Source: Methanobacteriota archaeon (lineage in GTDB: Archaea; Hydrothermarchaeota; Hydrothermarchaeia; Hydrothermarchaeales; BMS3B). Taken from it: a stretch of 48,541 nt of DNA. The notes beneath the pieces were generated by a model. The model was given only the letters and a program-made list of their open reading frames with translations. It did not search any database and was not told where the DNA came from. Both the position numbers and the translations under genes were made by a program. The first letter of the stretch is position 1; each line of letters begins with the position of its first letter. This document shows positions 5,642-23,841 of the stretch, piece after piece. Location: positions 13,913-62,453 of the forward strand of contig JAADFX010000130.1 of assembly GCA_013152685.1 (NCBI GenBank), in the 5' to 3' direction.

Positions 5642-6535
5642 TCAGCCCAGGAGCTCCCTGCCCTTCTGCACGAAGAAGCTGACGAACTCCTCCCTCTCGG
5701 GATGCGCCGAGTCCCTGCGGCACACCACGTAGAGGTGCCTCTCAACCCTGAAGTCGGCAATCTCCCTCACCAGAATTTTTGAGTTCATGCTCCGCGCCGC
5801 CACCTCGGAGGTAATTGCCGCTCCCAGGCCTCGAGCCACCGCCTGGAGCTGGGAGAAGACGCTGTTCACCTCGGCGATGCTCCTTATCTCCTCCGGAGCT
5901 ATGCCGCGCCGCTTTAGCGCGTGGTGCAGGTAGCGCGTTATGCCAGAGCTCTCCGGAAGGGTCACCAGGGGGTGGCGCAGCACCTCCCGAATCGTGAGCT
6001 CGGGCACCTCCGCGAGGGGGTGCCCCCGGCTAAGCGCAAGCACCAGGCGGTCCCTTCCCAGGGGGGTGCACCCGTAGCCAGCGCCGAGCTCGCCCTCCAG
6101 GAAGCACGCCACGGCGATGTCCACCTCGCTGCTCTCCAGCAGCGCGGCGCACTCGGAGGAGTTCTTTATCAGCACCGCGAGCTCAAGCTCGGGCCTGAGG
6201 AGGCGGTACTCGCGCAGCACCTCAGGCAGGAGCACCACTCCAGGGATGTTTCCCAGCGCAATGCGAAGCGGCGGTGTTCTCCGCGCCGCCACCTCCCTCC
6301 TGGCCGCCTCCAGCCTCCTGAGGATGCCCCCAACCTCCTGCACCGCTATCCTGCCCTTCTCGGTGAGCTCCACTCCGGTTTTCTTCCTCTCCAGGAGCTT
6401 CTCCCCGAAGAACTCCTCCACAGCCCTAACGTGGGCGCTGACGGTGCTCACAGAGAGGCCCAGCGCCCTTGCGGCGTAGAGCAGGCTCCCGTGCTCCACC
6501 ACCTTCTGAAAGGTGTGCAGGTACTCCAGCCTCAT
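5642..6535 (-). CDS. LysR-family transcriptional regulator
   Basis: N-terminal wHTH LEYLHTFQKVVEHGSLLYAARALGLSVSTVSAHVRAVEEFFGEKLLER followed by a periplasmic-binding-protein-like effector domain. It is divergent from the multihaem cytochrome gene. Confidence 0.85.
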   Translation of the reverse strand: MRLEYLHTFQKVVEHGSLLYAARALGLSVSTVSAHVRAVEEFFGEKLLERKKTGVELTEKGRIAVQEVGGILRRLEAARREVAARRTPPLRIALGNIPGVVLLPEVLREYRLLRPELELAVLIKNSSECAALLESSEVDIAVACFLEGELGAGYGCTPLGRDRLVLALSRGHPLAEVPELTIREVLRHPLVTLPESSGITRYLHHALKRRGIAPEEIRSIAEVNSVFSQLQAVARGLGAAITSEVAARSMNSKILVREIADFRVERHLYVVCRRDSAHPEREEFVSFFVQKGRELLG

Positions 6536-6566
6536 GGGCGTATATTCCCCCCGGCAGTATTTATAT

Positions 6567-6585
6567 TTTTCGGATTTTCAGAAAA
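6567..6585. promoter_or_regulatory. Dyad TTTTC-N9-GAAAA (T-N11-A-like) in the LysR/cytochrome divergent intergenic region
   Basis: TTTTCGGATTTTCAGAAAA, read directly. It lies between the LysR start (6535) and the cytochrome start (6661). The TATA-like ATTTATATA and the GGAGGTGG ribosome-binding site follow downstream. Confidence 0.25.
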
Positions 6586-6660
6586 ATTGGGCGTTTAATT
6601 CGTATTTTACAAAAGATTTATATACCTCCCGGCGGCAATTTCTCTTCGGAGGTGGTAAAC

Positions 6661-8541
6661 ATGAGGGCTGCAATAGGTGGGGCTGTGCTCCTGCTTGTGC
6701 TCCTCTTCCCGGTGTATGCAGACTCCTGCGTGGACTGCCACGGCAGCAGGGAGAAGATGGAGCAGCTGGGCTACCCGCAGTTCTACTTCCCCCTGGAGGA
6801 GGTGAGGGAGCAGACGGGCATGCCCGCCACCTGCGTGGACTGCCACCTGGGCAATCCCGAGGCAACTGACCTGGAGGAAGCCCACAGGGGCGTGCTCTCG
6901 GTGCAGGTGGTGAGCAAGAAGGCCTTCTCCCTGCTGGACAGGGAGAACCTGATGTCAGCGCTCACGCCCAACGGGAGCAGGCTCACCAGCATGTTGCCAA
7001 AGGACAGGAGGGTGAACACCCTCATATACCACGACCGCGAGCCAGAGCTTTTCACCTTCAACAGGAGCGCTGTGGAGAGGACCTGCGGAAAGTGCCACCC
7101 GCGCCAGGTGGAGGAGTTCGCCCGCACGGTGATGGGCTCTGTGAGGTACCAGAGCATGTACAGGAACTGGACCGACACCCAGCTCGGACCGCACAACTGC
7201 GGCCCCTGGTACCTGGACCACTGGGAGGAAATCGCCAGTGAGAGCAGCGCCAACTACACCTACGAGCAGGCGAGGATAAACCAGAAGGCGTGCAACAGGT
7301 GCCACGTCTCCTGCCTGGACTGCCACTACGCCCCCTTCGAGGGCGAGGGGGTGCACAGGTTTGAGCGCACGCCGTCGCCGGTGAGCTGCTACGGCGGTGG
7401 CAGGGGCTCAATATGCCACGCGGGACCAGAGGAGCGCCGCAGAGGTGCGGGCTACCTGGGTGCGGAGTTCTCGAAGCCTCCTGGAAGGGAGCCGGATGTG
7501 CACGTGAAGTACAACCTCACCTGCGTGGACTGCCATGACCCCCTCGCCAAGGGGGGCATGGGCGGCGTTGAGAGAGAAGCGAGCTGCACCACCTGCCACG
7601 GAGAGATTGCGGAGGCCGTGAGCTCGAGCGACCACGCCAGCGTCGCCTGCGAGTCCTGCCACATAAAGGATGTGGGCGGCTACCAGCTGACGGTGTGGGG
7701 TCCGGGAAAGGTCGCCGGTGTTGCAACGCCCTACAAGAAGTACAGGAACTACTACGGCGAGGCGCCCAATCCGATACTCATCAGAGATGCCTCCGGGAAG
7801 TGGATACCGGTGAAGCCCTTCCCCATGGTCACCGTGGGCGTGGCGAAGGAGGTGAAGGGCAAGCCCGGCCCGAGCTTCAGGAGGAACGGCTCCAGGGACG
7901 CCTTCGCGCTGGTGGGGACCTTCGACGGCCTGCCCGAGAACAACCTGGCTCTGCTCTGGTTCCAGATGGACAAGATGTCCCACGCCATAAGGAAAGAGGC
8001 CAGGGACTGCGAGAGCTGCCACGCCTCGACGGAGCAGGGATTCTACGCGAAGTGGAAGTTCACAGACCAGGGGGCGGAGCCCTTCGAGGGCGAGCACCGC
8101 ATCGTTGCCAACAGCTCTGGGCTATACGCCCTGGGGCTGAGGAACACCACGCCCATAGTCACAAAGAAGGGGTGGAGCATCGCAGACCTGGCGCCCTGGT
8201 ACTACCTGAGGGACAAGTTCTACGCCAGGGGCGACTACTCCCTGCCGGAGGTGGAGGAGGCGAAGTACGCCGCCGCCAGGGCTGAGGCGGAGAGCTTCCT
8301 GGAGGAGTACGCAGCGCTGGAGCAGAGGCTCTCCAGAGCAGGAGATGCGGAGAAGCTGGAAGAGCTGGAGAAGGTCAGGGCGATAGGTGTGCACAACCCG
8401 CAGGAGGGCATCCGCCTGCTGAAGGAGCTGGGAGCGGAGCCCGCTCCCAAGCCTGAGGAGCGCGGAGTGTGCGGCCCCACGGCGGTGGCGCTGCTCGCGG
8501 CGCTCACCCTGGCGCTGGGGCGGTGCCTCAGGAGGGCGTAG
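6661..8541 (+). CDS. Exported multihaem c-type cytochrome (9 CxxCH plus one possible CX8CH) with CGP-CTERM-like anchor
   Basis: GGAGGTGG lies 6 nt upstream of ATG 6661. Signal peptide MRAAIGGAVLLLVLLFPVYA. Haem sites are CVDCH x3, CGKCH, CNRCH, CLDCH, CTTCH and CESCH x2. Many N-x-S/T sequons are present. A coiled-coil segment precedes GVCGPTAVALLAALTLALGRCLRRA. The part of the track ORF upstream of 6661 overlaps lysR. Confidence 0.85.
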   Translation: MRAAIGGAVLLLVLLFPVYADSCVDCHGSREKMEQLGYPQFYFPLEEVREQTGMPATCVDCHLGNPEATDLEEAHRGVLSVQVVSKKAFSLLDRENLMSALTPNGSRLTSMLPKDRRVNTLIYHDREPELFTFNRSAVERTCGKCHPRQVEEFARTVMGSVRYQSMYRNWTDTQLGPHNCGPWYLDHWEEIASESSANYTYEQARINQKACNRCHVSCLDCHYAPFEGEGVHRFERTPSPVSCYGGGRGSICHAGPEERRRGAGYLGAEFSKPPGREPDVHVKYNLTCVDCHDPLAKGGMGGVEREASCTTCHGEIAEAVSSSDHASVACESCHIKDVGGYQLTVWGPGKVAGVATPYKKYRNYYGEAPNPILIRDASGKWIPVKPFPMVTVGVAKEVKGKPGPSFRRNGSRDAFALVGTFDGLPENNLALLWFQMDKMSHAIRKEARDCESCHASTEQGFYAKWKFTDQGAEPFEGEHRIVANSSGLYALGLRNTTPIVTKKGWSIADLAPWYYLRDKFYARGDYSLPEVEEAKYAAARAEAESFLEEYAALEQRLSRAGDAEKLEELEKVRAIGVHNPQEGIRLLKELGAEPAPKPEERGVCGPTAVALLAALTLALGRCLRRA

Positions 8542-10094: not shown

Positions 10095-10574
10095 CTACTT
10101 CTTTATCCAGTCCGCAATAAACACCTTGTAGGTCCTGCCGAGCCTCTCCCGGGTTATTATCCCCTTCTTCTCCAGATTGAGCAGCAGGGCGCTCACCTTC
10201 GACTTTGAGAAGCCTGTGCGGAAGCGCAGCGAGTCCTGGGTGATGCCCTCATTCTCCCTTATTATCTCTATGAGAAGCGCCTCATCCTCACTCAGGGCGC
10301 GCTCAAGTATGGCGTAGCTCTTGCTGTCCTGCTTCTTCTCCTCCTCGGGCTTTGCCCACATGTAGAATAGGGCGCCAGCGGCTATGCCGGCAATAAAGGA
10401 CAGGGTGAGGCGGTACCTGAGCAGGGAAAGGCTCTCCTCGGTGAGCAGCAGCGAGGCCAGGGAATCCAGGCCAAAGTACACGATGAACACCAGCAGAAAG
10501 GTCGCCAGAACGCGCTCATTCTCCGTGGCCGGCTTTTTTATCTTCATGGTGGTATCCTTATTGGCGCCGGTCAT
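10095..10574 (-). CDS. Membrane-anchored winged-helix (MarR/TrmB-like) DNA-binding protein
   Basis: Two N-terminal TM helices followed by EALLIEIIRENEGITQDSLRFRTGFSKSKVSALLLNLEKKGIITRERLGRTYKV, a wHTH. Confidence 0.6.
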   Translation of the reverse strand: MTGANKDTTMKIKKPATENERVLATFLLVFIVYFGLDSLASLLLTEESLSLLRYRLTLSFIAGIAAGALFYMWAKPEEEKKQDSKSYAILERALSEDEALLIEIIRENEGITQDSLRFRTGFSKSKVSALLLNLEKKGIITRERLGRTYKVFIADWIKK

Positions 10575-10583
10575 ATAAGAAGC

Positions 10584-11774
10584 CTATGGCAGCACTCCGG
10601 CACGCCTAATTATCCCCAGCATCTCCAGGCTGAAGGCCGAAGCCGAGAGCAGGAGCAGAAGGCCGCCCACCATGGAGACGGCGCTCTGGGACAGGTACAT
10701 CCCCAGGGCGAGCAGCACAACACCCGCATTGTAGGCGTAGAAAATCCAGCGAGAGCGCTCCGCGGAGAAGAGCTCCTTGAAGGAGGAGGGCGCCCTCTCC
10801 CGCTCCCTGGGCAGGATCCGCGCCCAAGCAAGCGTCGGGATCACGTGGTACAGCCCCCCGATTACCGTCTGGCCGACAAAGCCCAGGGCGGCCAGGTGGG
10901 CGTGGACTGAGGAGAGCCCCGCCTCAGGAAAGGCTGCCTGTACCAGGCCCAGGAGGAGAACCAGCAGCAGGTAGCCCAGGGCAGCCAGAAAGAACCTGGA
11001 CTCCACGGGCTCTGGCTTGAAGCTCATCCTGGTGGGCGCCGTGTAGCTCTTTACCATGTCGTAGGTGAAGAGGGCGGCTGCTGAGAGGAGGACCGCGCCG
11101 GAGAGGAGGAGAAGCGCCTCAGAGAGCCCGAAGCCGAGCACCATCCCCGCCGCCGAGATGAGGGTGAGGTAGAACACGTAGTCCACCCAGCGCCGGTTGT
11201 ATATGTCCTTGACCACCAGCATGGGGAGCATCCAGGACATGGCGCCGAAGATTATCAGGGTCACCCCGCCCACCAGGGAGAGGTGCACATGGGAAGGGCG
11301 GTAGCCGTAGAGGGCGGGGTTCAGGAGGATCAAAAACCCAAGCGTCGCCCCGAGGCTAAGAAGGACGCTGGCTGCCGAGTAGAACTTGAAGGCATAGTTT
11401 TCCCCCCTGCGCTCCGCGATGGTCGCCAGGATGTTGTAGGTGAAGAGGTAGAAGCACACCAGCAGGAGCAGTGCCCCAGCCGCCGCCACCAGGCGGTGGT
11501 GGGGGTAGCTCAGCGAAAACACCACCAGGCCGGAGTTGAAAAGCCAGAAACTCGCCGAGGCGGCGCGCTTGCTGTGGAGCTCAGCGCCGGTGAGGGTGGG
11601 AACCTGCTGGTACATGGTGGCAATTATAACGCCGCAGACGAACCCCACCAGGGCGAGGTGCACGTGCACAGGCGTGGGAACCGAGAGGCCGGCCAATCCG
11701 GCTAACCCGAGGAGGAGCGCCACAACAAAATACACCAGCGCCGCTGCCAGAAACCGCAGTATTACGGCCGACAT
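10584..11774 (-). CDS. Polytopic (about 12 TM) membrane protein with thrice-repeated H-x-H-L...P-x-L motif; function unknown, possibly haem/metal-binding
   Basis: The 396-aa ORF carries repeats PVHVHLALVGFVCGVIIATMYQQVPTL, PSHVHLSLVGGVTLIIFGAMSWMLPML and SVHAHLAALGFVGQTVIGGLYHVIPTL about 125-135 aa apart. It is co-oriented 200 nt downstream of the HAO-like gene. The CDS is confident; the function is not. Confidence 0.6.
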   Translation of the reverse strand: MSAVILRFLAAALVYFVVALLLGLAGLAGLSVPTPVHVHLALVGFVCGVIIATMYQQVPTLTGAELHSKRAASASFWLFNSGLVVFSLSYPHHRLVAAAGALLLLVCFYLFTYNILATIAERRGENYAFKFYSAASVLLSLGATLGFLILLNPALYGYRPSHVHLSLVGGVTLIIFGAMSWMLPMLVVKDIYNRRWVDYVFYLTLISAAGMVLGFGLSEALLLLSGAVLLSAAALFTYDMVKSYTAPTRMSFKPEPVESRFFLAALGYLLLVLLLGLVQAAFPEAGLSSVHAHLAALGFVGQTVIGGLYHVIPTLAWARILPRERERAPSSFKELFSAERSRWIFYAYNAGVVLLALGMYLSQSAVSMVGGLLLLLSASAFSLEMLGIIRRAGVLP

Positions 11775-11969: not shown

Positions 11970-13460
11970 TCAGGGCTTCCTCCTTCTCCTGAGCAGCAGC
12001 GCATACCCTGCCACCGGCAGCAGCGCAAGGGCAGCCACTGACGTGGGACCGCACACGCCCTTCTGCTTCTCCAGCTTGGCAACGCGCTCCTCGAGCTCCT
12101 TCTTCTCCCGCTCCATCTCGAGCCACTCTTCCATCATGTTGAGCTTGTCCATCAGCGCATCCACTGCACCGTTCCAGTGGGTCCAGTCGGGCCCCATCAT
12201 GCTGGCGCCCATCCTCCACCTTCTGCCGTCGTGGTGCCAGATGTAGTAGTACATGATCTCCGGAATCTCGTCTATCGGGTTGGACTTGTCTATGAGTCCC
12301 TCCTCGTAGGCGGCGTTGAGGAGCTGCTCCGTGTACTCGTACACCCTGTTGTAGTCCTCCACCACCTTGTCGAAGCTCTCGAAGTAGCCGTCAACCCAGT
12401 CGCTGGCGTGGCACACCCTGCACACCTTCTTCATCTCTGCCCTGCCCCGCTTTGCCTGCTCCAAATCGGGCTTCTGCTCTCCCAGGGGCACCTTGCTGGC
12501 GTCGTCCCACTGGGGCGTCGACTTCTTGGGCTGAAGCTCCCAGTAGAGCCTGGCTCCAACGTCGTGGGTGCTCTCAACCACTCCGCCAAAGCCGGACATG
12601 TGGCAGGTGGCGCAGGTGGGTGCCGCTATGTCCTCGGGACCCCACTGACCAGGGGGCACGTCCCAGTTCCAGTCTTCGCCGCTGCTCGCGTAGATGTTGC
12701 CGTGCTTGCTCTCCTCGTAGATCTCTATCTGCGGATGGTCAGGGCCGAGATGGCACTGGCCGCAGGTCTCGGGCTTCCTCGCTTCGGCTATGCTGAACCT
12801 GTGGCGAGTGTGGCAGGCGGAGCAGGTTCCCATGCTGCCGTCGGGGTTGATCCTGCCTATGCCATTGTTGGGCCAGCCGTCCACCAGATTGCCGTTCTTT
12901 GATATCACGTAGCTTCCGTGGCACTCCAGGCAGCCCAGCACCTGGTTCTCCTGGTGGTAGTTCTCGTCATCCAGGAGGCCGATGCGCTTCAGGGCACCGC
13001 TGTCCGGGAACAGCGGCGTGAGCTGCCCCCTTATGAAGTCCCTGGGGTTGTTCTCAATGGCGGTCTCCAGCTTCAGCGGGTCCTTGCCCTGCTTCACCAT
13101 CTCCCTGTACCAGGGCTTCAGCGGCCCTATGAAGGCTGCCCAGGCGTGCTTGCTCCTTGAAAACTCCGCAACCTGCTTTGGATGACAGCTCTCGCAGTAG
13201 CGCGGTGATACCACTGCCGTGACCCTGTAGCCCATGTGCTCAAAGCCGGAGGGGTCGTCATCCTTGGCGAGGTGGCAAACATAACACTTCACTCCCACCT
13301 TGCTGTGCTTACTCTCCTCCCACTGCTTCACTATCCCTGGGGTTACGGTGTCGTGACAGCTCAGACAGGGCGCCCCTGGCTCTCTGAATTCCTGTGCGTT
13401 AGCTGTACTGAGCAACATCGCTGCAGCTATCGCAAAAATTAAGAGATGCTTTAACCTCAT
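11970..13460 (-). CDS. hao: HAO-family (hydroxylamine oxidoreductase-like) octahaem c-type cytochrome with CGP-CTERM-like anchor
   Basis: Signal peptide MRLKHLLIFAIAAAMLLSTANA. Eight CxxCH sites are present: CLSCH, CYVCH, CESCH, CLECH, CSACH, CGQCH, CATCH and CRVCH. HAO/HDH-like blocks include VKQWEESKHSKVGVKCYVCH and YIWHHDGRRWRMGASMMGPDWTHWNG. The C-terminus has a coiled coil followed by KGVCGPTSVAALALLPVAGYALLLRRRRKP. Confidence 0.85.
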   Translation of the reverse strand: MRLKHLLIFAIAAAMLLSTANAQEFREPGAPCLSCHDTVTPGIVKQWEESKHSKVGVKCYVCHLAKDDDPSGFEHMGYRVTAVVSPRYCESCHPKQVAEFSRSKHAWAAFIGPLKPWYREMVKQGKDPLKLETAIENNPRDFIRGQLTPLFPDSGALKRIGLLDDENYHQENQVLGCLECHGSYVISKNGNLVDGWPNNGIGRINPDGSMGTCSACHTRHRFSIAEARKPETCGQCHLGPDHPQIEIYEESKHGNIYASSGEDWNWDVPPGQWGPEDIAAPTCATCHMSGFGGVVESTHDVGARLYWELQPKKSTPQWDDASKVPLGEQKPDLEQAKRGRAEMKKVCRVCHASDWVDGYFESFDKVVEDYNRVYEYTEQLLNAAYEEGLIDKSNPIDEIPEIMYYYIWHHDGRRWRMGASMMGPDWTHWNGAVDALMDKLNMMEEWLEMEREKKELEERVAKLEKQKGVCGPTSVAALALLPVAGYALLLRRRRKP

Positions 13461-13503
13461 ATTCTCACCCAGTTAACAATCTCCCACTCATATATTAAAA
13501 AGG

Positions 13504-13544
13504 TTTTTTTAAAAAGTGATTTAAATAAAGATTGTAGTGTTAAA
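13504..13544 (-). promoter_or_regulatory. hao upstream composite element TTTAACACTA-N19-TTTTTAAAAAAA (gene orientation)
   Basis: Read directly. The plus strand is TTTTTTTAAAAA-GTGATTTAAATAAAGATTG-TAGTGTTAAA. N19 contains the TATA-like TATTTAAAT. The proximal end lies 43 nt from the hao ATG. The same outer blocks occur with the same spacing upstream of napA. Confidence 0.55.
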
Positions 13545-13551
13545 ATTTAGT

Positions 13552-14652
13552 TTAGGTTGATAGGCGCACCCTGTGCCTCAATTCGGGAAGCGGTGACGAG
13601 GCGGCGTACACCGTACCGGCGCAACCCTCGAGCTCCTCCTCCCTTTTAGCCGTGAGCACGCGGGGCTTTAATTCCTCATCCCTGCATGTGAGGACAACTT
13701 CATCCACAACCCCTGAATTTAAAGAAAATTTAAGCAGCGCCGTAACTGCACCGCCGTCCTGCCCTCCGCCACGGGTTGCCCTGGCAGCCAGGATGCGCCT
13801 GTACCTGCCCAGGTGCTCCCTCCGTAGCTCCCCCAGCTCCAGCTGCTCCTCCAGCGCCCTCAGAGGCAGCGCTGTTCTGGTGCAGGCAGCGTAGCACAGG
13901 CTGCAGTCCTGGGGGCACCTCCCCCTCAGCCTGGGCATGCCGTTCCTCATCTCCAGCTCCGAACATGCGGCGCTGCACGCACCGCACGCGTCGCACAGAC
14001 CGGAGACCACGATATCCCTCCACAGCTCCCGGAAGCCCCTGCCCTCGGTCCTGCTCAGCGCCTCCTCCAGCGAGCCCAGATCTCTGGTGGCGTGGTGGGG
14101 CACCTCATCCCCCTGCTCCACCCTGCTCTGTATCCTCCTGAGGCTCCTCTCAAACTTGGCGCGGGCGACCCGCTGGAGCTCCTCCACGCCCGCCTCGCCC
14201 ACCTCCATCAGCTCCAGAAGGCCCGCCTCCTCAGCACCATGCAGCACCTCCTCGCCCCGGGGGGTGCGCACAATCAGGGTGGTCCACCCCTCCGGGGAGC
14301 CGGTGCTACCTGCGCTAATGTCCGCCAGCTCTGAGGTGAAATCCAGGCACATCCTGCACGCCATCTTCACGTACTTCCTCATCTCCCCCAGGGGAAACTC
14401 CAGCTCCATGCCCCGGGCTGAAACCCTCACCCGGTCCCCGGAAATTCTCATCCGGGCCACCTCCTCTGGCGCCACGCCCCGCGCCTCCAGGAACCCTGCC
14501 ATGCAGGGGTAGCTCCAGTTGCCCATGCAGAAGAGGCCCACCACCAGCTCCACCCGCTCCACCAGCCTCCTCCCCAGCAGCCTGCCCAGCGCCTGCAGCT
14601 TTCGCAGCCCCTGCACCTGACACGGCGTCCCCACGAAGCCCAGCGCTCTCAC
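13552..14652 (-). CDS. FrhB/FdhB-family (F420-reducing hydrogenase beta-like) flavo-FeS protein, circularly permuted, with internal 2x[4Fe-4S] segment
   Basis: The N-terminus starts in the FrhB C-domain (GTPCQVQGLRKL, LFCMGNW, CRMCLDFTSELADISAGSTGSPEGWTTLIVRT). Next come CDACGACSAAC and CPQDCSLCYAAC. The FrhB N-domain (GGGQDGGAVTALL...AGTVYAASSP) comes last. The ATGA overlap with napD indicates translational coupling. Confidence 0.75.
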   Translation of the reverse strand: MRALGFVGTPCQVQGLRKLQALGRLLGRRLVERVELVVGLFCMGNWSYPCMAGFLEARGVAPEEVARMRISGDRVRVSARGMELEFPLGEMRKYVKMACRMCLDFTSELADISAGSTGSPEGWTTLIVRTPRGEEVLHGAEEAGLLELMEVGEAGVEELQRVARAKFERSLRRIQSRVEQGDEVPHHATRDLGSLEEALSRTEGRGFRELWRDIVVSGLCDACGACSAACSELEMRNGMPRLRGRCPQDCSLCYAACTRTALPLRALEEQLELGELRREHLGRYRRILAARATRGGGQDGGAVTALLKFSLNSGVVDEVVLTCRDEELKPRVLTAKREEELEGCAGTVYAASSPLPELRHRVRLST

Positions 14653-14891
14653 TCCACCTCATCCTCCACGTTCAGGTACACCAGCTGGAAGTCCACCACG
14701 TCCTCCCACTTCTCTATCTCCTCCGAGAGCTTCTTGAGCTCCTTTGTGCTTCTCCCCTCCATCACCACTGCAATTCCCCGGGTGCCCCTCCCCTTAACCT
14801 CGACTCCCGGGAGGTTCCTGAGGTTCCTCTCCACCTCGTCCTCCCTCCCGGGCACCGGCACAATTACCGCTCCAGATATGGGCAAATCCAT
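14649..14891 (-). CDS. napD: NapD-like Tat-proofreading chaperone
   Basis: 80 aa from the ATG at 14891, which overlaps the napH TGA within GGAGGTGATGG. The sequence ISGAVIVPVPGREDEVERNLRNLPGVEVKG...GIAVVMEGRSTKELKKLSEEIEKWEDVVDFQLVY matches the NapD ferredoxin-like pattern. The longer track ORF overlaps napH. Confidence 0.72.
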   Translation of the reverse strand: MDLPISGAVIVPVPGREDEVERNLRNLPGVEVKGRGTRGIAVVMEGRSTKELKKLSEEIEKWEDVVDFQLVYLNVEDEVE

Positions 14892-15736
14892 CACCTCCTT
14901 ACCGCATAGTACAGGGCGCCCGTTGGGCAGGCGTCCCTGCACAGTCCACAATTATCACAGGTTCTATCATTAAAATCCTTATCTATACCGAGCTCCACAG
15001 GGCGCAGACCATAGGGGCAGGCGATGTTGCACTCACCGCAGAAGATGCAGCGCTCCATCCTCTTGGAGATTCTCACCACCCTCTTCGCCCCCAGCAGCGA
15101 CAGGAAGCCTCCCGCCGGGCACAGGGAGCGGCACCAGATCCGCCTGGCGGCGAGCGCCTCGAGCAGGACCACGCCCGTCAGGAGGAGAAGGCCGCCGTAG
15201 CTCGGGGCGCCGTAGGTGAGGACATAGAAGATCTCCCTTCCCAGCACGTGGGGCAGGTCGAAGGCGGACACCACCGGAGTGGCAAAAAAGAAGCTCAGGA
15301 GCAGCGCAAACCCCAGCAGGTGGTAGCGGTAGTCCGCCACCCTGAGGCTGAGCCTCACGCCGCGCGAGCTGAGGAAGCTCCCAAGCCTCTGGTTGAGCTC
15401 CAGCAGGAACCCGGCGGGGCAGATCCAGGAGCAGAAGACCCTGCCCAGGAGGAGGGTAATCGCCAGGGGCAGAAGCGCCGCCGCCAGCAGCGGCAGGTAA
15501 ACCACCTTCGCCGCCAGCATCGCCTCCAGCGCCGCGAGGGGGTGGGTAACGGTGAAGCCGTAGAAGCTGAAGCTCCAGGTGTCGCCCCACACGCGGGACA
15601 CCCTGGGCGGCGGGAGCTCCCCCATGGCTATCCGGGATGGTGCCCACTCTATCGGATTCTGGGAGTACAGGGGGACGGCGACCAGCACCGCCAGGACCAG
15701 CACCTGAAACACGCGCCTCAACCTGCGGACTTCCAT
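14891..15736 (-). CDS. napH: NapH-type membrane FeS quinol dehydrogenase subunit
   Basis: The start MEVRRLRRVFQ lies at 15736, just after the napG stop. Four TM helices are present. CxxxCP motifs are CSWICPAG and CRSLCPAGG. C-terminal ferredoxin motifs are CIFCGECNIACP and CDNCGLCRDACP. Confidence 0.85.
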   Translation of the reverse strand: MEVRRLRRVFQVLVLAVLVAVPLYSQNPIEWAPSRIAMGELPPPRVSRVWGDTWSFSFYGFTVTHPLAALEAMLAAKVVYLPLLAAALLPLAITLLLGRVFCSWICPAGFLLELNQRLGSFLSSRGVRLSLRVADYRYHLLGFALLLSFFFATPVVSAFDLPHVLGREIFYVLTYGAPSYGGLLLLTGVVLLEALAARRIWCRSLCPAGGFLSLLGAKRVVRISKRMERCIFCGECNIACPYGLRPVELGIDKDFNDRTCDNCGLCRDACPTGALYYAVRR

Positions 15737-15737
15737 G

Positions 15738-16478
15738 CTAGACCCTCTTAACCACCCGCACCGCGGGAAGCTCAACACCCGGCCCCGCCCTGCCTATCAC
15801 ATTCCTCACCATGGCGGCGTACCTCTCCTCGAAGTAGGTGAGCTTCCTCCCCGGCTCCATCGTCGCCCTGGCAATCCTCTCATTCACCGGGCAGACGTAG
15901 TTGCACATCCCGCATCCGACGCAGTGCCTCTCATTCACGTGGGGCCTTATTCCCACGGCACCCTCTATCACCTCATTCGGCGGGTAGGCGAGCATGGCGT
16001 CATCCCTGAGGGGGCAGTTGTAGTAGCACTCCCCGCAGGAGTCGTACTGCCACGCCAGGCACAGGTCGCGGTTTAGCACAGAAACGCCCATCTTCAGCTC
16101 CTCTGGAAGTGCCAGGAGGGTGTCCCTGTCGTTCCTTATCTTCCTGAGGGCGCCCGTGGGGCACGCCTCGCCGCACAGCAGATACTCGCTCAGGGGCTCG
16201 TCCCTGCCCTCACTGGTTCGCCTGAGGCAGAGGTAGCAGGGGGTCTCCACGGGGTCAATGTAGGGCGTCGCCACCTTCGCGCCCGCGCTGATATCGAAGA
16301 ACTTTATGGAGTCGTAGGGGCACGCCTCACCGCACTTTCCACACCTGATGCAGCGGGCCAGAAAATCACGCGCCGCCCCCGGGGGGCGTATTGCCGGGGC
16401 GTCGCCTTCTCCGAGCCCTATGCCAGCCAGGCCGATGAGCACCACACCCTTGAGGAAGCTCCTGCGCTTAAGCTTCAC
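15738..16478 (-). CDS. napG: NapG-type Tat-exported poly-ferredoxin
   Basis: Tat signal KRRSFLKGVVLIGLAG. The sequence contains IRPPGA...F...CIRCGKCGEACP plus three further 4Fe-4S motifs (CGEACPTGA, CGECYYNCP, CVGCGMCNYVCP). It overlaps the upstream gene by 4 nt. Confidence 0.85.
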   Translation of the reverse strand: MKLKRRSFLKGVVLIGLAGIGLGEGDAPAIRPPGAARDFLARCIRCGKCGEACPYDSIKFFDISAGAKVATPYIDPVETPCYLCLRRTSEGRDEPLSEYLLCGEACPTGALRKIRNDRDTLLALPEELKMGVSVLNRDLCLAWQYDSCGECYYNCPLRDDAMLAYPPNEVIEGAVGIRPHVNERHCVGCGMCNYVCPVNERIARATMEPGRKLTYFEERYAAMVRNVIGRAGPGVELPAVRVVKRV

Positions 16479-16906
16479 CAGCCACCCTCCCTCTCAATCT
16501 CAATAATCGCAACCTCGTAGTGGCGCCCCTTTATCTGGTAGGGCACCACCACCCTGCCCCGCACCACCACCTCGGAGCCCTGCATCGGCATTGTTCCCCG
16601 GGTGATGACCCATATCTCACCCGTGCCGTCGTTCAGCAGATAGGGCTGCTCATCCACAAACTCAAAGGCAAGCCCCGGGAGTGCGGTGCCCCGCAGCACC
16701 ACCTCCATGCCCTCGTAGGCCTCCGGGTTGTCCAGAATATCGGCGACCCTGACACCGCCGCCCGCATCACCCGCCGGCGCCGGCTCTGGTTGTGGCGTCG
16801 CTACGGGCGCCTCCACCGCCTCCCCCACAGCCTCAACCACCGCTTCCTCCTTCTCAACGCAGCCGGCAAGAACCAGAAGTATCAGCAGCACTGCATAGAG
16901 CCGCAT
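16475..16906 (-). CDS. Predicted lipoprotein with A/P/E-rich linker and OB-fold-like C-terminal domain (unknown function) in the napB position
   Basis: Lipobox LLVLAGC, a low-complexity linker and then a beta-rich domain (MEVVLRGTA...GEIWVITRG...VVVRGRVVVPYQIKGRHYEVAIIEIE). There is no CxxCH, so it is not NapB. The stop overlaps the napG start. Confidence 0.55.
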   Translation of the reverse strand: MRLYAVLLILLVLAGCVEKEEAVVEAVGEAVEAPVATPQPEPAPAGDAGGGVRVADILDNPEAYEGMEVVLRGTALPGLAFEFVDEQPYLLNDGTGEIWVITRGTMPMQGSEVVVRGRVVVPYQIKGRHYEVAIIEIEREGGW

Positions 16907-17015: not shown

Positions 17016-19493
17016 CTACGCCTTGACCACCTTTATCTTGCACACCTTGTAGTCAGGCTCCGCCGCCTTTGACCAGCTCTCGGGCACGTCTATGGTGAGG
17101 TCGTTGATCAGCTTGGTCTCATCGAACCAGGGCACGAAGACCATGCCCGGCTGAGCGCGCTCTGTAACCCAGGCGGGGAGGACGATGCTGCCGCGCGGTG
17201 ATATCAGCTTTATCTTCTCACCGCTCTTGACCCCCAGCTTCCTGGCATCGCTCGGGTGTATCTCCACGTAGGCGGCCGGGTTCAGCTCACGCAGCAGGCG
17301 CACGCGCATGGTCATTGTTCCGGTGTGCCAGTGCTCTATAACCCTGCCGGTGTTCAGCACGAAGGGATAGCTGGCGTCCGGCATCTCGTAGTCCAGCTTC
17401 GCCGCGAGAGCGCGGATTACCGCCTTGTCCTTGGTGTTCTTGAGCTTGTGGCCTCCGTAGTAGTTTATCGGCCCTGGATAGCCGTGCTCCTCCATGTGCT
17501 GGTCGTACAGCGTGACGTAGCCCGTGGCGTACCTCTTCTTGTCCCTTCCGAACACCCTTATCGCGTACTCCCTGGAGATGTAGCGCTTGTTGCTTCCGCG
17601 GTTGTCAAACTCGGTGCTCGGGCAGGGCCACTGGACGCCGCCCGCGTGGGCCTTGAGCTTCTCGTAGGTGGCGCCGTAGAGGTCAACATCCTGTCCCCTG
17701 GTGAGCACCCTGTACTCGTTCCACGCGGCCTCCTCTGGCGTCATCTCGCCCTTCTTAACCCTGGGGTCGTCGTAGAAGCCCAGGCCGTAGACCTCTATGG
17801 TGTCCAGCACCTTGAGCGGGTCCTGCCTGTCCCTGATGGCATACTTAACCTTCCTTCCCAGCTTCTGGGCTATCCTCCTGGCCACCTCATTTATCTGCCA
17901 GAAGTCGGGCTTTGCCTCTCCCGGCGGGTCCACCAGCTTGTTTATAAACTGGCTCCTCCTGTCTGTCTGCCCCATGACGCCCTCCTTCTCCACCCACATG
18001 GCGCTGGGCAGTATGACCGTCGCCACCTCAGTGGTCTTGTTGGGGTAGATGTCGCTCACCACAGTGAAGGCCTTCATCATGGCCTCCGCATAGCGGTCGC
18101 AGTTGGGCAGGCTCTGCGCCGGGTTGGTGGTGTTTATCCATATCGCCTTTATCTCGCCCTTCTCCAGGCGCATGAACATGTTAACCGCCGGGCCCGTGGG
18201 CTTCTTGGGCATCTGCTCAACGGGCACGCCCCAGACCTCTGCCACCTCCTGCCTGTGCTTGGGATTCGCCACCGCCCTGTGCCCCGGCAGGATGTGGGTG
18301 AGTCCGCCCTGCTCGCGAGTGCCGCCGCAGGCGTTGGGCTGCCCCGTGAGGCTGAGGGAGTCACAGCCGGGCTTGCCTATCTTGCCTGTGAGCAGGTGCA
18401 GGTTGTGAACCTGGCAGTTGAGCTCCACGCCCTGGGTGCGCTGGTTCAAACCCATGGTCCACATGCTGAGGGCAGTGTAGCCGCGCCGCCCAAACCACCG
18501 CGCCGCCAGGCGTATGTCCTCAGCGGGCACCCCGGTTATGTCCTCCACCTTCTCCGGGGTGTAGTCCTTGAGGAACTCCCTGAAGCCGTCCAGGTCCATC
18601 TCCTCGCCGGCCGGACCAAGGCCCACCCTGAAGGTGCAGTACTTGAGGTGCTCGTAGTCCACCATGTCCTCCTCTATTATCACATACGCCATGGCGTTCA
18701 GCAGGTACATGTCGGTACCCGGCTTGAACTTCAGGTGGAGGTCCGCATACCTCGCTGTCGGAGTTGTGCGCGGGTCGGCCACTATAACCCTCACCCTGTC
18801 CGGATAGGCGCTCTTCCTGTCTATCACCCTGCGGAAGAGCATCGGGTGCTGCTCCGCCATGTTTGAGCCTATGATGAAGATGGTGTCCGCCAGGTCTATG
18901 TCGTCGTAGCTTCCCGCAGGCTCATCTGCGCCGAAGGTGTTGAGGTAGCCTCCAACCGCAGAAGCCATGCACAGCCTGGGGTTGCCCTCCACGTTGGCGG
19001 TGCCAATAAGCCCCTTGAAGAGCTTGTTGGCGGCGTAGGCTTCCTGGGTTGTGTTCTGTCCAGAGCCGTACCACGCGACGCTGTCGGGACCGTACTCCTT
19101 GATGTACTTGGCAAAGGTGTCGGCAATCAGCTCCAGCGCCTCGTCCCAGCTGACCTCCTTGTAGCTTCCATCCGGCTGACGCACCATGGGCTTGGTCAGC
19201 CTCTCCTTCCCGCCGCCACCGTACATTATGTGGGGCAGCGAGTACCCCTTCATGCAGAGTCTGCCGAAGTTTATCGGGGAATCCGCATCGCCCTTTACTG
19301 CCACCACCTTACCGTCACGCACGCCCACAAGTACAGTGCAGCCGGTGCCGCAGAACCTGCACTGGGCGCGCCCGAAGGTTATTCCCCCATCTCCCGGCGC
19401 CGCCATCGCGGGGGCACTCATGCCGGCTGCAAGCATCGCTGCAGTGGCGGCTGAAGCCTTTATGAACTCACGTCTGCTCATGCTTATTCCCAT
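17016..19493 (-). CDS. napA: Periplasmic-type nitrate reductase catalytic subunit NapA (Mo-bisPGD, Tat-exported)
   Basis: GGAGGTGA lies 5 nt before ATG 19493. Tat signal SRREFIKASAATAAMLAAGMSAPAMA. The N-terminal [4Fe-4S] motif is CRFCGTGCTVLV...C. The Mo-ligand region NPRLCMASAVGGYLNTFG resembles NapA. The napG/H/D context supports the call. Confidence 0.9.
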   Translation of the reverse strand: MGISMSRREFIKASAATAAMLAAGMSAPAMAAPGDGGITFGRAQCRFCGTGCTVLVGVRDGKVVAVKGDADSPINFGRLCMKGYSLPHIMYGGGGKERLTKPMVRQPDGSYKEVSWDEALELIADTFAKYIKEYGPDSVAWYGSGQNTTQEAYAANKLFKGLIGTANVEGNPRLCMASAVGGYLNTFGADEPAGSYDDIDLADTIFIIGSNMAEQHPMLFRRVIDRKSAYPDRVRVIVADPRTTPTARYADLHLKFKPGTDMYLLNAMAYVIIEEDMVDYEHLKYCTFRVGLGPAGEEMDLDGFREFLKDYTPEKVEDITGVPAEDIRLAARWFGRRGYTALSMWTMGLNQRTQGVELNCQVHNLHLLTGKIGKPGCDSLSLTGQPNACGGTREQGGLTHILPGHRAVANPKHRQEVAEVWGVPVEQMPKKPTGPAVNMFMRLEKGEIKAIWINTTNPAQSLPNCDRYAEAMMKAFTVVSDIYPNKTTEVATVILPSAMWVEKEGVMGQTDRRSQFINKLVDPPGEAKPDFWQINEVARRIAQKLGRKVKYAIRDRQDPLKVLDTIEVYGLGFYDDPRVKKGEMTPEEAAWNEYRVLTRGQDVDLYGATYEKLKAHAGGVQWPCPSTEFDNRGSNKRYISREYAIRVFGRDKKRYATGYVTLYDQHMEEHGYPGPINYYGGHKLKNTKDKAVIRALAAKLDYEMPDASYPFVLNTGRVIEHWHTGTMTMRVRLLRELNPAAYVEIHPSDARKLGVKSGEKIKLISPRGSIVLPAWVTERAQPGMVFVPWFDETKLINDLTIDVPESWSKAAEPDYKVCKIKVVKA

Positions 19494-19658: not shown

Positions 19659-20318
19659 TTAAATGTTACCTTCCAGCGACAGCATGGTCATGAAGGCGCG
19701 CTTCCCCGTGTCGGAGATGTAGTAGTGGCGGTTTTCATCCTGGGCTATCAGCCCCGCCTGCTTTAGCACCCTCAGGTGAAAGCCGAGCTTTGCGGGCTCA
19801 TCGATGTCCAGGTAGTTCATTATGTCGGTAAAGCGCGCCTTCCCCTTTGCGTGGAGGTACTCTATTATCCTGCGGCGTATCGGGTTTGAGAGGGACTTGA
19901 GCACGTCCTTCCCGGTCTCCCTGACGCCCGCCTTCTCCCGCACCGCCTCCTCTATCCTGGTCTCCTCCAGCAGGCGGAGGATCTTGTTCCTGATCTCCTC
20001 CACCTTGAAGGGCTTGAGGATGTAGTCGCTGGCTCCCATCTTCATCGCCCTCACGGCGCTGTCCACTGTGCCAAAGGCGGTGATAATTATGACCTTTGTG
20101 AGAGGGGAGTACTTCTTGACGTTCCTCAGCACCTCCATCCCGTCGGCTCCCGGCATCACCAGGTCGGTGATGACCAGGTCAAACTTCTGCTTTTTTATCA
20201 TGTTTATGGCCTTGACCCCGTCCTCTGCGATTTTGGGGGAGTAGCCCTTCTTCTCCAGCAGAATCTTCAATCCCTCTCTGAGCTTCGGGTCATCCTCCAC
20301 TATCAGTATCTCCTGCAT
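19659..20318 (-). CDS. Response regulator: REC domain plus ArsR-type winged-helix output
   Basis: The start [13 protein letters not shown] lies at 20318. The phospho-acceptor context is DLVITDLVMPGADG. The C-terminal LSNPIRRRIIEYLHAKGKARFTDIM...KLGFHLRVLKQAGLI is an ArsR/SmtB-like wHTH. Confidence 0.82.
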   Translation of the reverse strand: MQEILIVEDDPKLREGLKILLEKKGYSPKIAEDGVKAINMIKKQKFDLVITDLVMPGADGMEVLRNVKKYSPLTKVIIITAFGTVDSAVRAMKMGASDYILKPFKVEEIRNKILRLLEETRIEEAVREKAGVRETGKDVLKSLSNPIRRRIIEYLHAKGKARFTDIMNYLDIDEPAKLGFHLRVLKQAGLIAQDENRHYYISDTGKRAFMTMLSLEGNI

Positions 20319-21753
20319 CTGACTCACCCGGCAGATATATTCTGAAGGTGGTGCCCCTGCCCACCTCGCTCTCAACCTCTATCTCTCCTCCGTGCTTCTC
20401 AATTATGCTGTAGGTGATGTAGAGGCCGAGCCCCGTGCCCTTGCCCACCTCCTTCGTGGTGAAGAAGGGGTCAAAAATCTTCCCGAGGTGCTCCTCGGGG
20501 ATTCCCACACCGGTGTCCCTGATTTCCACCACCACCCTGCCATCACTCCTGTAGGTGCGTATCGTCAGCTTGCCGCCTTCCTTCATCGCGTCAATTGCAT
20601 TGGTGGCTATGTTTATGAAGGCATCCAGCAGCTTTGAGGAGTCTCCCTTTATCTCCGGAAGCCTCTCGTCCAGGTCCAGCTCAAGCTTTATGTTTTTGTA
20701 CTGTAATTGGGGTTTGAGGATATTTAACATTTTCTTGATTATTTCGTTAACCTGGGCAACCTCATTTTTGAACTCCCGCTGCCTTGAGAAGTCGAGCAGC
20801 CCCTGAACCACCTTAGATGCGAGGGACGCCTCCTCCTCTATAATCTCCAGCACCTTCCTGGTCTCCTCATCCTTCACCTCCTCCCTGTGGATCTGGGAGT
20901 AGAGAATTATGTTCGCCAGGGGGTTGTTTATCTGATGAGCTATCCCGGCGGCCAGCTTGCCCACCGTGGCCATCTTCTCACTCTGTATCACCTGGGCCTC
21001 CTTGTTCTTGAGCTCCTCAACCATGCTGTTAAAAACCCTTGCGAGCTCTCCGAGCTCGTCTTCCTTGTCCACATCTACCCTGGCGGAGTAGTCCCGCTTT
21101 GAGAGTTTTATGGCAGCCTCCTTCACCTTGTTGAGGGGGGTGATCACCACGAAGCGCATTATCCCGAGTATTGCGAGCATTATTCCCAGGGAGAGGAGGA
21201 AGCCGTAGAAGATGAGCTGCCTCCTCGTCCTCTCCAGGGACGCCATTACCTCGCTCACGGGGATTTCCACCACAAGAGCGCCGCGCAGGTCGCCCTCCCG
21301 GTACCCCTGGTCCACGTGGCACTTCAGGCAGGGCTTCTCTATGTACAGGGGGACGGCGTACTCGTAGAAATCCGAGCTTACGGCGTACCTCTCCCCCTCA
21401 CCCCCCTGCATAAACTCCATCAGCACCCTCCTCTCAAACTCGTCGGCGGGGTAGTTATCCGGGTCCCTGGGCTTGAAGGTCACCAGCTTTATCTTGTAGT
21501 CGTACATCTCATTGGAAAGCTCGGAGAGCTCGTAGGTGAGCTCTGCCGGCACAGGCATCACCCTCTCCCTGTTTTCCGCCGCCCACAGCCTCACCAGCAG
21601 GATCTGGTCTGTAACACTCTTTGCCTGCTGCCGCAGCTGCTCCATGATGTTCCTCTCGTGCACCTCGCTCATGTAGTAGAAAATTCCCTGAACTGAGAGG
21701 AACACTATTATGCCCACGGCAAGCATCACCTTTGTGCCAACGCTCGCCTTCAT
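20290..21753 (-). CDS. Sensor histidine kinase with extracytoplasmic haem-c (CxxCH, DUF3365/Tll0287-like) sensor, HAMP, HisKA and HATPase domains
   Basis: TM1 is followed by an exported domain of about 150 aa ending [31 protein letters not shown] (CLKCH at 21316-21330). TM2 and HAMP follow. The H-box is [12 protein letters not shown]. The N, G1 and G2 boxes are [16 protein letters not shown] and GKGTGLGL. Confidence 0.85.
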
Positions 21754-22745
21754 TCGCCCACCTCGGGGGGTACCACGCGCACTGGAAGGCGCTCCGGGAG
21801 ATGGCGCAGATCCAGGACCACTATTCCGCCGTCGTAGTCTGCAACATACGCACTGCCCTCCGCCACCGCTATGCCGTAGGCGTTTCCGGGGGTGTCGTAC
21901 TCCGCCACCGGCTCAAGCCTGCCGTCCTCGTGGATCCTGAGCAGCGCCACGCCGCTGTTCGCGAGGGTTACCAGCAGGTAGTCCCTGTAGCTGGCTAGCC
22001 GCAGGGCAAAGCCCGGAAGCTGGAGGTTCTGCTGGTGAACAAGCCTGCCGTCCGGAGATATCCTGTACACATCCACCCCGGCATCTGAGCTAGCCACGTA
22101 CGCGTGGGAGCCCCTGACCAGGACGTCGTGGGCAACACTGCTCGTGGGAACAAAGCCCAGGAACTCCAGGGAGCCGTTCTTCCGGAGCCTGGCCACGTAC
22201 AGCCGCATTGTGAAGTCGGCCAGGTACAGCGTCCTGTCCCTTACGCTCACGCCCTTTGGGTAGCTGTAGTTGCCGGGCTTGTAGAACCTCTGGCTGAGGG
22301 TGGCAAGGTCAAGAACCACCAGGCCAGAGGCCACACAGGCGAGGAAGGCACTGTTGCCGGAGATAACAATCTTCTGGGCGGTGTGGTTCAGCACCACCTC
22401 CGCCAGGAGCTGCGGCTGGGCGGGGGTGCTCACGTCCAGCAGGTAAAGCTTCCCCAGGGTGTCGCTGACGTAGAGCGTCCTCCCGGACACCGCCAGGGTC
22501 TGGGCCTCGCCGGGGGTTCTGAAGCCCCCTATCCTGCGCAGGCTTCCCGCCCCTATTGAGAAGATGTCCAGCCCCCAGGGTGAGACCGCATATAAGTACT
22601 CGTCGTACACCAGAACATCGTAGTAGTAGTGGGGCTTTTGAGGACTGATGTCCGGCTGATATCCCTGATTCTCGCCGGACACGCATCCTGCAAGCACCAG
22701 CAGCAGTGGAATCGCCACCCAGTAGAGGGTCCTATGTCCACACAT
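21750..22745 (-). CDS. LVIVD-repeat beta-propeller lipoprotein
   Basis: Lipobox LLLVLAGC. The repeated units are G.a..v.v.g..aYva....Gl.v.D.s (YLLDVS, LVVLDLA, GVDVYRI, GIVVLDL). The ATGA overlap with the kinase gene couples the two. A start at 22772 is also possible. Confidence 0.7.
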   Translation of the reverse strand: MCGHRTLYWVAIPLLLVLAGCVSGENQGYQPDISPQKPHYYYDVLVYDEYLYAVSPWGLDIFSIGAGSLRRIGGFRTPGEAQTLAVSGRTLYVSDTLGKLYLLDVSTPAQPQLLAEVVLNHTAQKIVISGNSAFLACVASGLVVLDLATLSQRFYKPGNYSYPKGVSVRDRTLYLADFTMRLYVARLRKNGSLEFLGFVPTSSVAHDVLVRGSHAYVASSDAGVDVYRISPDGRLVHQQNLQLPGFALRLASYRDYLLVTLANSGVALLRIHEDGRLEPVAEYDTPGNAYGIAVAEGSAYVADYDGGIVVLDLRHLPERLPVRVVPPEVGE

Positions 22746-22893
22746 CTTCTCCTCTAAGGCCACAGCGCACATCTGGTAAATTTTACTTAAATTTTTACTT
22801 ATTTATCTTTTAATATAAAATTCCCTTTATATAAAATTTCTTTTAAAATAAAGTTTTAAGGACTGGAGGTTCAAAAGATACTACGGTGATGGT

Positions 22894-23034: not shown

Positions 23035-23067
23035 ACTCCCGCCACCTGGAGCGGACGATGGGGGAAA

Positions 23068-23715: not shown

Positions 23716-23841
23716 GCACAGCCCCTCCACCCGCTGCCCAGCGGAGTATTATAAAAATTTTTTTAAAACAAGCTTTTTATATCCGCATATTTAAAAAATG
23801 TATAGATTTAAATAAAAATGTTTATTGTCCGGGTGGCGTCG

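Follow-up and report, generated by a model that had tools for sequence, protein, structure and literature searches.

A circularly permuted FrhB-family protein in an archaeal nap cluster, a candidate F420H2 input to periplasmic nitrate reductase

A 48,541-nucleotide stretch of DNA from a Methanobacteriota archaeon of the Hydrothermarchaeota lineage (the window hereafter; GenBank assembly GCA_013152685.1, contig JAADFX010000130.1, positions 13,913 to 62,453) encodes a cluster for periplasmic nitrate reductase (Nap) in which napD is followed by an FrhB-family gene with an unfamiliar order of domains. What is the product of this gene, and what does it do beside Nap? The gene, here called cpFrhB for circularly permuted FrhB, lies at 13552..14652 on the minus strand, begins with GTG and encodes 366 amino acids, as seen in the list of open reading frames, in Pfam and NCBIfam matches, and in an identical database protein (P0001). 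We lean slightly towards an overall explanation in which cpFrhB is a permuted cytoplasmic flavin/Fe-S plug-in module that an archaeal nap cluster acquired on a single occasion and that feeds Nap from F420H2. The structural and evolutionary part of this explanation we regard as close to certain.

The chain begins with the domain that normally comes last. FrhB_FdhB_C occupies residues 2-151 (14200..14649; Pfam E 4.7e-42, profile positions 2-147 of 150) and is followed by residues 152-208 (14029..14199), which comprise a long helix, formerly the canonical C-terminal helix, and a new linker of about 20 residues. A 2x[4Fe-4S] ferredoxin-type domain comes next (residues 209-270, 13843..14028), recognized by its alignment to 8riu_B 11-83, a match to the C-terminal ferredoxin of FrhG and the conservation of its cysteines, and FrhB_FdhB_N closes the chain (residues 288-357, 13582..13791; E 3.1e-15, profile positions 2-75 of 78); all four segments lie on the minus strand. 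Both Pfam domains score above their gathering thresholds (PF04432, 143.8 bits against a cut-off of 23.3; PF04422, 56.5 against 22). Searched against the PDB with phmmer, the protein aligns in swapped blocks: residues 209-349 match 8riu_B 11-158, covering ferredoxin and N domains, and residues 4-173 match 8riu_B 178-345; residues 281-363 match 3-90 of FrhB (3zfs_C) and residues 3-185 match 96-280; the blocks of 8rja_E are swapped likewise. The ferredoxin domain directly precedes the N domain and aligns with it to 8riu_B as one block, the arrangement seen in ACDS zeta/FwdI-type modules. A preliminary description, made from the letters of the window, had placed the C domain before an Fe-S segment and the N domain last; the Pfam order, the swapped alignment blocks and the eight cysteines between the two halves bear this out.

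With residues 201-366 moved ahead of residues 1-200, the protein aligns collinearly over its full length with canonical homologues in which the ferredoxin domain (Fer4), N domain and C domain follow in that order (Fer4-N-C). The junction created in this way (...RHRVRLST|VRALGFVGTPCQ) corresponds to the canonical inter-domain loop without an indel, so that the two termini would indeed join into a contiguous canonical FrhB, as had been anticipated. Residues 152-208 reach past the canonical C-termini in this de-permuted alignment, and the linker within them connects what used to be the C-terminus with the former N-terminal leader. An in-frame TGA lies two codons 5' of the GTG start, so no N-terminal domain was missed; a hidden N-terminal extension is excluded by the same codon, and a frameshifted canonical gene was also rejected as an explanation. 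cpFrhB is a clean circular permutation of a Fer4-N-C protein of the FrhB/FpoF type, with no residues lost. Since both the canonical N-terminal leader and the C-terminal helix are retained around the new linker, the permutation could have arisen from a tandem duplication that was then trimmed; fission of the gene and later re-fusion of its parts would explain it equally well. No repeat or duplication scar flanks the gene in the window.

By sequence, motifs and modelled fold, cpFrhB belongs to the FrhB superfamily. A published classification of F420 enzymes gives the FrhB/FpoF family a fixed N-then-C topology (PMC8518648), and the order stated for the FrhB/FdhB/FpoF family, PF04422 before PF04432, is reversed here; because this defining order does not hold, we file the protein as a permuted variant. 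It falls far under the NCBIfam cut-offs of the canonical members (FpoF, 108 against 475 bits; FrhB, 176 against 331 bits).

cpFrhB is no one-off: proteins of permuted architecture make up a small subfamily in archaea. In a collection of 5.8 billion proteins, eight (P0001-P0008) cover 93-100% of cpFrhB collinearly, and all later matches cover about 45%. A tblastn search with the C, Fer4 and N segments split found the C-Fer4-N order in 21 GTDB species representatives (L009-L029); the other 59 loci gave the canonical order in 57 cases, with two undetermined. A profile search of 1.84 billion representatives of 50%-identity clusters returned 4,941 family members, and at least 14 of the best 150, among which order was assessed, are collinear with cpFrhB and hence permuted. 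The permuted set comes from Hydrothermarchaeota, unclassified 'Methanobacteriota', Methanobacterium and Methanobrevibacter, and includes a protein encoded in the complete genome of the cultured Methanobrevibacter acididurans DSM 15163. The closest relatives of the window are metagenome-assembled genomes of Candidatus Hydrothermarchaeota, Ca. Pyrohabitans jungbluthii JdFR-16, JdFR-17 and S141 isolates. This distribution bears directly on whether the gene could be a pseudogene or an artefact of assembly or annotation, an idea to which we give practically no credence: the same architecture recurs in independent NCBI, JGI, ENA and Logan assemblies as well as in the complete isolate genome, and the window gene has an intact reading frame, no repeats and a confident fold model.

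Did the permutation arise once? All permuted proteins start within a few residues of the strand that precedes VGxPCQ, pointing to a common breakpoint, and the linker is alignable and of equal length in all permuted sequences except L017 and L018, with a shared S/D-x-EE-[ILF] pattern. In a neighbour-joining tree of the N and C domains, the Methanobacteriales permuted proteins form a clade in 199 of 200 bootstraps and the nap- and por-linked permuted proteins of Hydrothermarchaeota group in 61 of 200; a clan of all permuted proteins was never recovered (0/200), so one origin is not demonstrated. A single origin is plausible though unproven, suggested only by the identical breakpoint and alignable linker. 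One database entry also concerns the start: P0006 (L007 9950-11044) has its start mis-called at MQAL…, leaving out the PCQ cysteine, and tblastn places it about 50 nucleotides upstream, abutting napD.

How does a chain opened at the N/C boundary fold? Modelled by AlphaFold 2 in its native order, cpFrhB forms a single body (predicted local distance difference test score, pLDDT, 83.9; predicted TM-score, pTM, 0.86) with a helix at residues 153-179. Foldseek matches only one half of this model to FrhB-type chains (about 180 columns, query-normalized TM-score, TMq, 0.33-0.36); because Foldseek aligns sequentially, this match is uninformative on topology. We also modelled the re-ordered window sequence with canonical homologues in the alignment, an approach that biases the model towards the canonical fold. 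This canonically guided model (pLDDT 86.9, pTM 0.88) superposes on 8riu_B with TM-scores of 0.85/0.85 and a root-mean-square deviation of 2.1 A over 355 columns, on 8rja_E with 0.80/0.83, on Fsr with TMq of 0.77-0.79 and on FrhB with target-normalized scores (TMt) of 0.87-0.89 (0.89 for 9r51_B). Each element of secondary structure in the native model has one counterpart in the de-permuted model, and vice versa. Together the models strongly suggest that the three-dimensional topology of the FrhB fold is preserved despite the permutation.

The ligands expected of such a fold are in place. Four cysteines of the C domain (C11, C42, C99 and C102, in the PCQ, GLFC and CxxC motifs) would bind a proximal [4Fe-4S] cluster; they are shared with canonical homologues and invariant in 19-20 of 20 permuted proteins. 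The same domain carries D104-x6-D111-I-S and G115-x2-G-S-P-x-G-W123. Between the two halves lie eight ferredoxin cysteines in two motifs (C220/223/226/230 and C246/250/253/257), and the N domain contributes Q298-D-G-G-A-V-T304 and G346-T-x-Y349, invariant in 18-20 of 20 permuted proteins. The flavin-site motifs QDGGxVT, GSxGSPxGW and DF..ELADIS are all present, and the columns that are invariant across permuted and canonical proteins alike include the ferredoxin cysteines, QDGGxV, VGxPCQ, GLFC, CxxCxD, DxS and GW. As judged from these motifs, cpFrhB is predicted to carry ligands for flavin adenine dinucleotide (FAD), one proximal [4Fe-4S] cluster and two ferredoxin-type [4Fe-4S] clusters.

What the module might do is suggested by the company that its relatives keep. 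The preliminary description had proposed looking for the same architecture next to nap genes in other archaea; it does occur there, in a nap-linked clade (P0001-P0007) with the constant order napA-X-napG-napH-napD-cpFrhB, and the subfamily as a whole is not nap-specific. In eight species the permuted gene lies directly upstream of, or overlaps, porC-porD-porA-porB (L016 8957-13043 among them), where PorC and PorB exceed their NCBIfam equivalog cut-offs and PorA (549 bits, cut-off 550) and PorD (111 bits, cut-off 120) narrowly miss theirs. Another member, with a C-terminal extension of about 90 residues, overlaps mtd, the gene for F420-dependent methylene-H4MPT dehydrogenase (L089 55-2339); one lies among the genes of a split glutamate synthase and P-II (L090 4296-8504); and one lies upstream of a PreA-like gene encoding DHO_dh and 2x[4Fe-4S] domains (L095 6001-8305). 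Beside GltS- and PreA-type enzymes, this place usually belongs to a flavoprotein that oxidises NAD(P)H (GltD, PreT). In Methanobrevibacter and in JdFR-18 the permuted gene is solitary. The enzymes encoded next to the permuted gene in the pyruvate:ferredoxin oxidoreductase (POR), Nap, GltS and PreA-like contexts all have a ferredoxin-type Fe-S domain. These contexts suggest that the permuted subfamily is most likely used as a plug-in electron-transfer subunit beside different redox enzymes, like its canonical relatives, and they mark candidate F420-linked versions of Mtd, glutamate synthase, PreA-like and PorCDAB enzymes.

In the window, the gene is tightly bound into the nap cluster, all of which lies on the minus strand. 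The cluster opens with napA (17016..19493; NCBIfam NapA E 6e-202), whose product has a twin-arginine translocation (Tat) signal (Pfam TAT_signal), and continues with a gene for a 143-residue lipoprotein-like protein, X143 (16475..16906), with napG (15738..16478; NCBIfam NapG E 1.6e-31; twin-arginine signal KRRSFLKG) and with napH (14891..15736; NCBIfam NapH/MauN E 1.6e-34), which encodes a membrane protein with transmembrane-like segments, two CX3CP motifs and a C-terminal 2x[4Fe-4S] domain. napD (14649..14891; 80 residues, Pfam NapD E 2.6e-13) starts from an ATG that overlaps the napH stop, and cpFrhB follows. From X143 to cpFrhB the stop/start junctions overlap or abut (GTGA, TAG+1, TGATG, GTGA). 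The last of these, at 14649..14652, joins the napD TGA to the cpFrhB GTG; the preliminary description had rightly seen a four-nucleotide coupling of the two genes, and had given it as ATGA. Beyond cpFrhB lies an AT-rich spacer of 91 nucleotides (13461..13551) with two T5 runs and TATA-like boxes; the spacer probably terminates the napGHD-cpFrhB unit and serves the following gene as its promoter. cpFrhB closes a translationally coupled napGHD unit, and its product, having neither signal peptide nor transmembrane helix, is predicted to be cytoplasmic; NapA, NapG and the octahaem cytochrome encoded past the spacer carry export signals.

From these observations we propose a path for electrons. F420H2 would reduce FAD held between the N and C domains of cpFrhB, electrons would pass through the proximal [4Fe-4S] cluster to the two clusters of the ferredoxin domain, and this domain would hand them to a cytoplasmic Fe-S acceptor of Nap, most likely the C-terminal 2x[4Fe-4S] domain of NapH. 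Nitrate reduction in the periplasm would thereby draw on the cytoplasmic F420H2 pool, through an accessory input for redox balance and not through the core quinol route. That F420 is the substrate, that NapH is the partner and that electrons flow in this direction we infer from sequence and analogy, and taken on its own we rate the F420H2-to-NapH mechanism somewhat short of even. A bolder version, in which cpFrhB docks on the cytoplasmic Fe-S domain of NapH to make NapGH-NapA an F420H2:nitrate oxidoreductase, and in which the permutation (new termini at the N/C junction, ferredoxin domain as an internal hinge) adapts the module to several partners, strikes us as possible but doubtful.

Several points weigh against this proposal. 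Nine sister loci of the same X143-napG-napH-napD-octahaem layout (NapH 44-57% identical) contain no FrhB-like sequence. cpFrhB is the least conserved gene of its cluster, at 56-60% identity between the window and L001, L009 and L012, against 90-93% for NapA, 87-90% for the cytochrome and 75-82% for NapG and NapH; this may reflect relaxed constraint or adaptation to a partner. In one nap-linked protein, P0007 (L003 10001-11062, GCA_054014855.1), four of the eight ferredoxin-domain cysteines are lost, and it should, by its sequence, bind only one of the two ferredoxin clusters. No F420 genes are found among the genes of the window. Outward electron transfer from the cytoplasm runs against the membrane potential and conserves no energy, and we know of no transmembrane redox chain in NapH. 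Lastly, some members of the FrhB family, such as HCAR, do not use F420.

This last point leads to one alternative, in which fold and position are as proposed and the substrate is something other than F420. Reduced ferredoxin would be one candidate, as for HCAR and BciB, FrhB-family enzymes that depend on ferredoxin; NAD(P)H or a different small molecule would be others. HCAR (5dqr) is among both the PDB and the Foldseek matches of cpFrhB, and the new termini lie at the N/C junction, where FrhB structures hold the flavin, so that the substrate pocket could have changed. F420 is favoured because cpFrhB is close to proven F420 enzymes and far from HCAR, as the phmmer E values against the PDB indicate (8riu_B 1.4e-45, FrhB 2e-43, 8rja_E 5e-41, Fsr 8e-37, HCAR 2.4e-6); because the subfamily is restricted to F420-using archaeal lineages, every named host being Hydrothermarchaeota or Methanobacteriales/Methanobacteriota; and because one permuted member overlaps mtd. 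Methanogens use F420. For Hydrothermarchaeota, the F420-dependent mtd, mer and frhABG are drawn in a published metabolic model (PMC6775978). We consider a different substrate unlikely, and rank it second among the alternatives.

The main rival concerns the partner. The C-terminal 2x[4Fe-4S] domain of NapH and NapD-bound, pre-export NapA are the only cytoplasmic Fe-S acceptors in the Nap system, and cpFrhB might act on the latter as a NapF-like maturation factor: together with NapD it would serve reductive insertion of Fe-S or molybdenum cofactor into cytoplasmic pre-NapA, or keep its clusters reduced before Tat export, with F420H2 as reductant and no role as respiratory donor. Such a role agrees with the cytoplasmic location of cpFrhB and its coupling to napD, the gene for the chaperone of the NapA signal peptide, and it would avoid the energetic cost of outward electron transfer. 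It agrees less well with the POR, GltS and PreA-like contexts, which place the module like a catalytic electron-input or -output subunit; with the NapF model TIGR00402, which gives no match to cpFrhB at E<=0.01 and does match NapG; and with the separate encoding of maturation genes of the MoeA and FmdE type. NapH is favoured over pre-export NapA because of the analogy with those contexts, and we think maturation unlikely, if the strongest of the rivals. A cytoplasmic F420/flavin electron input or maturation factor at NapH, as the preliminary description had supposed, remains the best hypothesis.

The sister clusters, finally, help to define how far Nap depends on the gene. NapH loci were fetched from metagenomes independently of cpFrhB; they yielded four further nap loci with the gene, the nine sister loci without it, in which the cytochrome gene comes directly after napD, and bacterial-type nap clusters of different gene order, likewise without it. 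Because clusters of identical layout lack the gene, cpFrhB is not needed for core electron flow, and because they dispense with it and outward transfer from F420H2 conserves no energy, we assign it an accessory, redox-balancing role. The clusters that carry cpFrhB form one clade in the trees of NapH (200/200 bootstraps), NapG (170/200), NapA (150/200) and NapH plus NapG (200/200), and therefore point to a single gain; the data fit one insertion after napD, with gene and cluster inherited together from then on as NapH diverged to 56% identity. Could the gene nonetheless be an unrelated passenger between napD and the cytochrome gene, or a server of the downstream octahaem cytochrome and COX1-like genes? 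Its absence from the sister clusters and its standing as the fastest-evolving gene of the cluster would suit a passenger. The four-nucleotide napD overlap, however, is retained in relatives down to 50% identity (it is called in L001 and L003), the gene has been kept across the whole of this diverging clade, all cofactor ligands are evidently constrained, and the downstream cytochrome is exported and set off by the spacer with its T-runs. We judge a passenger very unlikely and retain the proposal of an accessory electron input to Nap.

The surroundings of the cluster offer further observations. The cluster encodes neither NapB nor NapC. X143 has no Pfam or NCBIfam match, bears a lipoprotein-type signal (…LAGC) and is kept between napA and napG in all related nap clusters of archaea, whether or not they include cpFrhB; in a cluster lacking NapB and NapC, it may be an unrecognised Nap subunit. 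Downstream of the spacer, the octahaem HAO-family cytochrome c (11970..13460, minus strand; eight CxxCH motifs, signal peptide, C-terminal transmembrane helix), which resembles HAO and hydrazine dehydrogenase, is followed by a COX1/NnrS-like protein with ten transmembrane helices (10584-11774, minus strand) and a membrane MarR-like regulator (10095-10574), an arrangement kept at 64-90% identity in relatives. The cytochrome and the COX1/NnrS-like set are probably a module for handling nitrite and nitric oxide downstream of Nap. Upstream of napA, 19659-23715 encodes a Tll0287-like/HAMP histidine kinase, two response regulators with DUF7347/ArsR-type helix-turn-helix domains and an LVIVD beta-propeller, a candidate nitrate-responsive two-component system in an archaeon; a possible small TatA-like open reading frame lies at 22843-23103, the TatA Pfam annotation coming from the syntenic loci L001 and L003 only, and MoeA (23818-25065) and FmdE (25077-25673) are encoded just past this stretch. 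Also near the nap cluster, 6469-8541 (plus strand) encodes a second large multihaem cytochrome of 690 residues with nine CxxCH motifs and an MtrC/MtrF-like domain match. Farther away, 45196-46827 (plus strand) encodes an unusual pairing, a 543-residue fusion of an AlaRS C-terminal/tRNA_SAD (AlaX-like) region with LPG_synthase_TM (MprF flippase-type). The window, which is archaeal, also encodes Dph2, a PcrB-type GGGP synthase and an archaeal Nre.

Both the permutation and the Nap association appear undescribed, though the building blocks and the plug-in principle are already known. We found no prior description of a permuted FrhB architecture in the open-access literature searched; published analyses of Hydrothermarchaeota list NapADGH without a cpFrhB gene (PMC6775978), and a 2026 review of Nap counts twelve nap genes and four operon types, with none resembling cpFrhB. 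The protein adds a natural, evolutionarily stable circular permutation to the FrhB/FpoF family, and so a test of how far the FAD/Fe-S fold tolerates re-threading. It is also a testable candidate for the archaeal partner of NapH and NapD on the cytoplasmic side. If the bolder version of the mechanism is true, no earlier case would be known in nature of a dedicated input from a cytoplasmic hydride carrier to a membrane protein of the NapH/NosH family, and the cytoplasmic clusters of NapH would be shown able to take electrons from the cytoplasm. For Hydrothermarchaeota of the deep crust, this suggests a possible route to dump electrons from F420H2 onto trace nitrate.

Among known systems, the nearest in position is bacterial NapF (TIGR00402), a cytoplasmic protein encoded next to napD and often absent. 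The preliminary description had placed cpFrhB where NapF sits, which holds only in the loose sense that the gene adjoins napD. The likeness is one of functional analogy and not of membership: each is a cytoplasmic protein with several [4Fe-4S] clusters, has its gene beside napD, and is dispensable or missing in many nap clusters. NapF has no relation to cpFrhB in sequence or fold; it is defined by four tetra-cysteine [4Fe-4S] motifs, whereas cpFrhB has two ferredoxin-type motifs and the FrhB-type cluster, and only cpFrhB has a flavin site and its own predicted route to a soluble hydride donor. Homology to NapF was rejected for want of a TIGR00402 match.

The nearer kin are enzymes of F420. FrhB, the beta subunit of F420-reducing [NiFe] hydrogenase (3ZFS/4OMF/4CI0, 9R51), shares both Pfam domains, the proximal cysteines and the FAD motifs, and is 36-37% identical to the cpFrhB C domain; unlike cpFrhB, it lacks a ferredoxin domain, has the N-then-C order and works within the FrhABG complex. 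FpoF/FqoF and the N-terminal half of Fsr (7NP8/7NPA) have the same Fer4-N-C composition, in canonical order, and serve as F420H2-oxidising inputs to a membrane complex or a fused reductase. Closest of all, with the best PDB sequence matches, are ACDS zeta and FwdI of Ca. Ethanoperedens thermophilum (8RIU_B, 8RJA_E), F420-reducing modules docked through their ferredoxin domains on carbon monoxide dehydrogenase (CODH) and Fwd (Lemaire et al. 2024; PMC11493965). They too combine a ferredoxin domain, FrhB N and an FrhB C domain with [4Fe-4S] and FAD, and they too are plug-in F420 oxidoreductases encoded with an Fe-S enzyme, the partner of cpFrhB being suggested by gene context. They differ in the order of their parts (Fer4-N-C against C-Fer4-N), in their partners (CODH and Fwd against Nap, with POR, GltS, PreA-like and Mtd in relatives of cpFrhB) and in direction, cpFrhB being expected to oxidise F420H2. 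By sequence and analogy, cpFrhB is predicted to work like ACDS zeta, FwdI, FpoF and the N-terminal half of Fsr, which would extend the principle of the plug-in F420 reductase, known from CODH-zeta and FwdI, to pyruvate:ferredoxin oxidoreductase, glutamate synthase, a dihydropyrimidine-dehydrogenase-like enzyme and periplasmic nitrate reductase.

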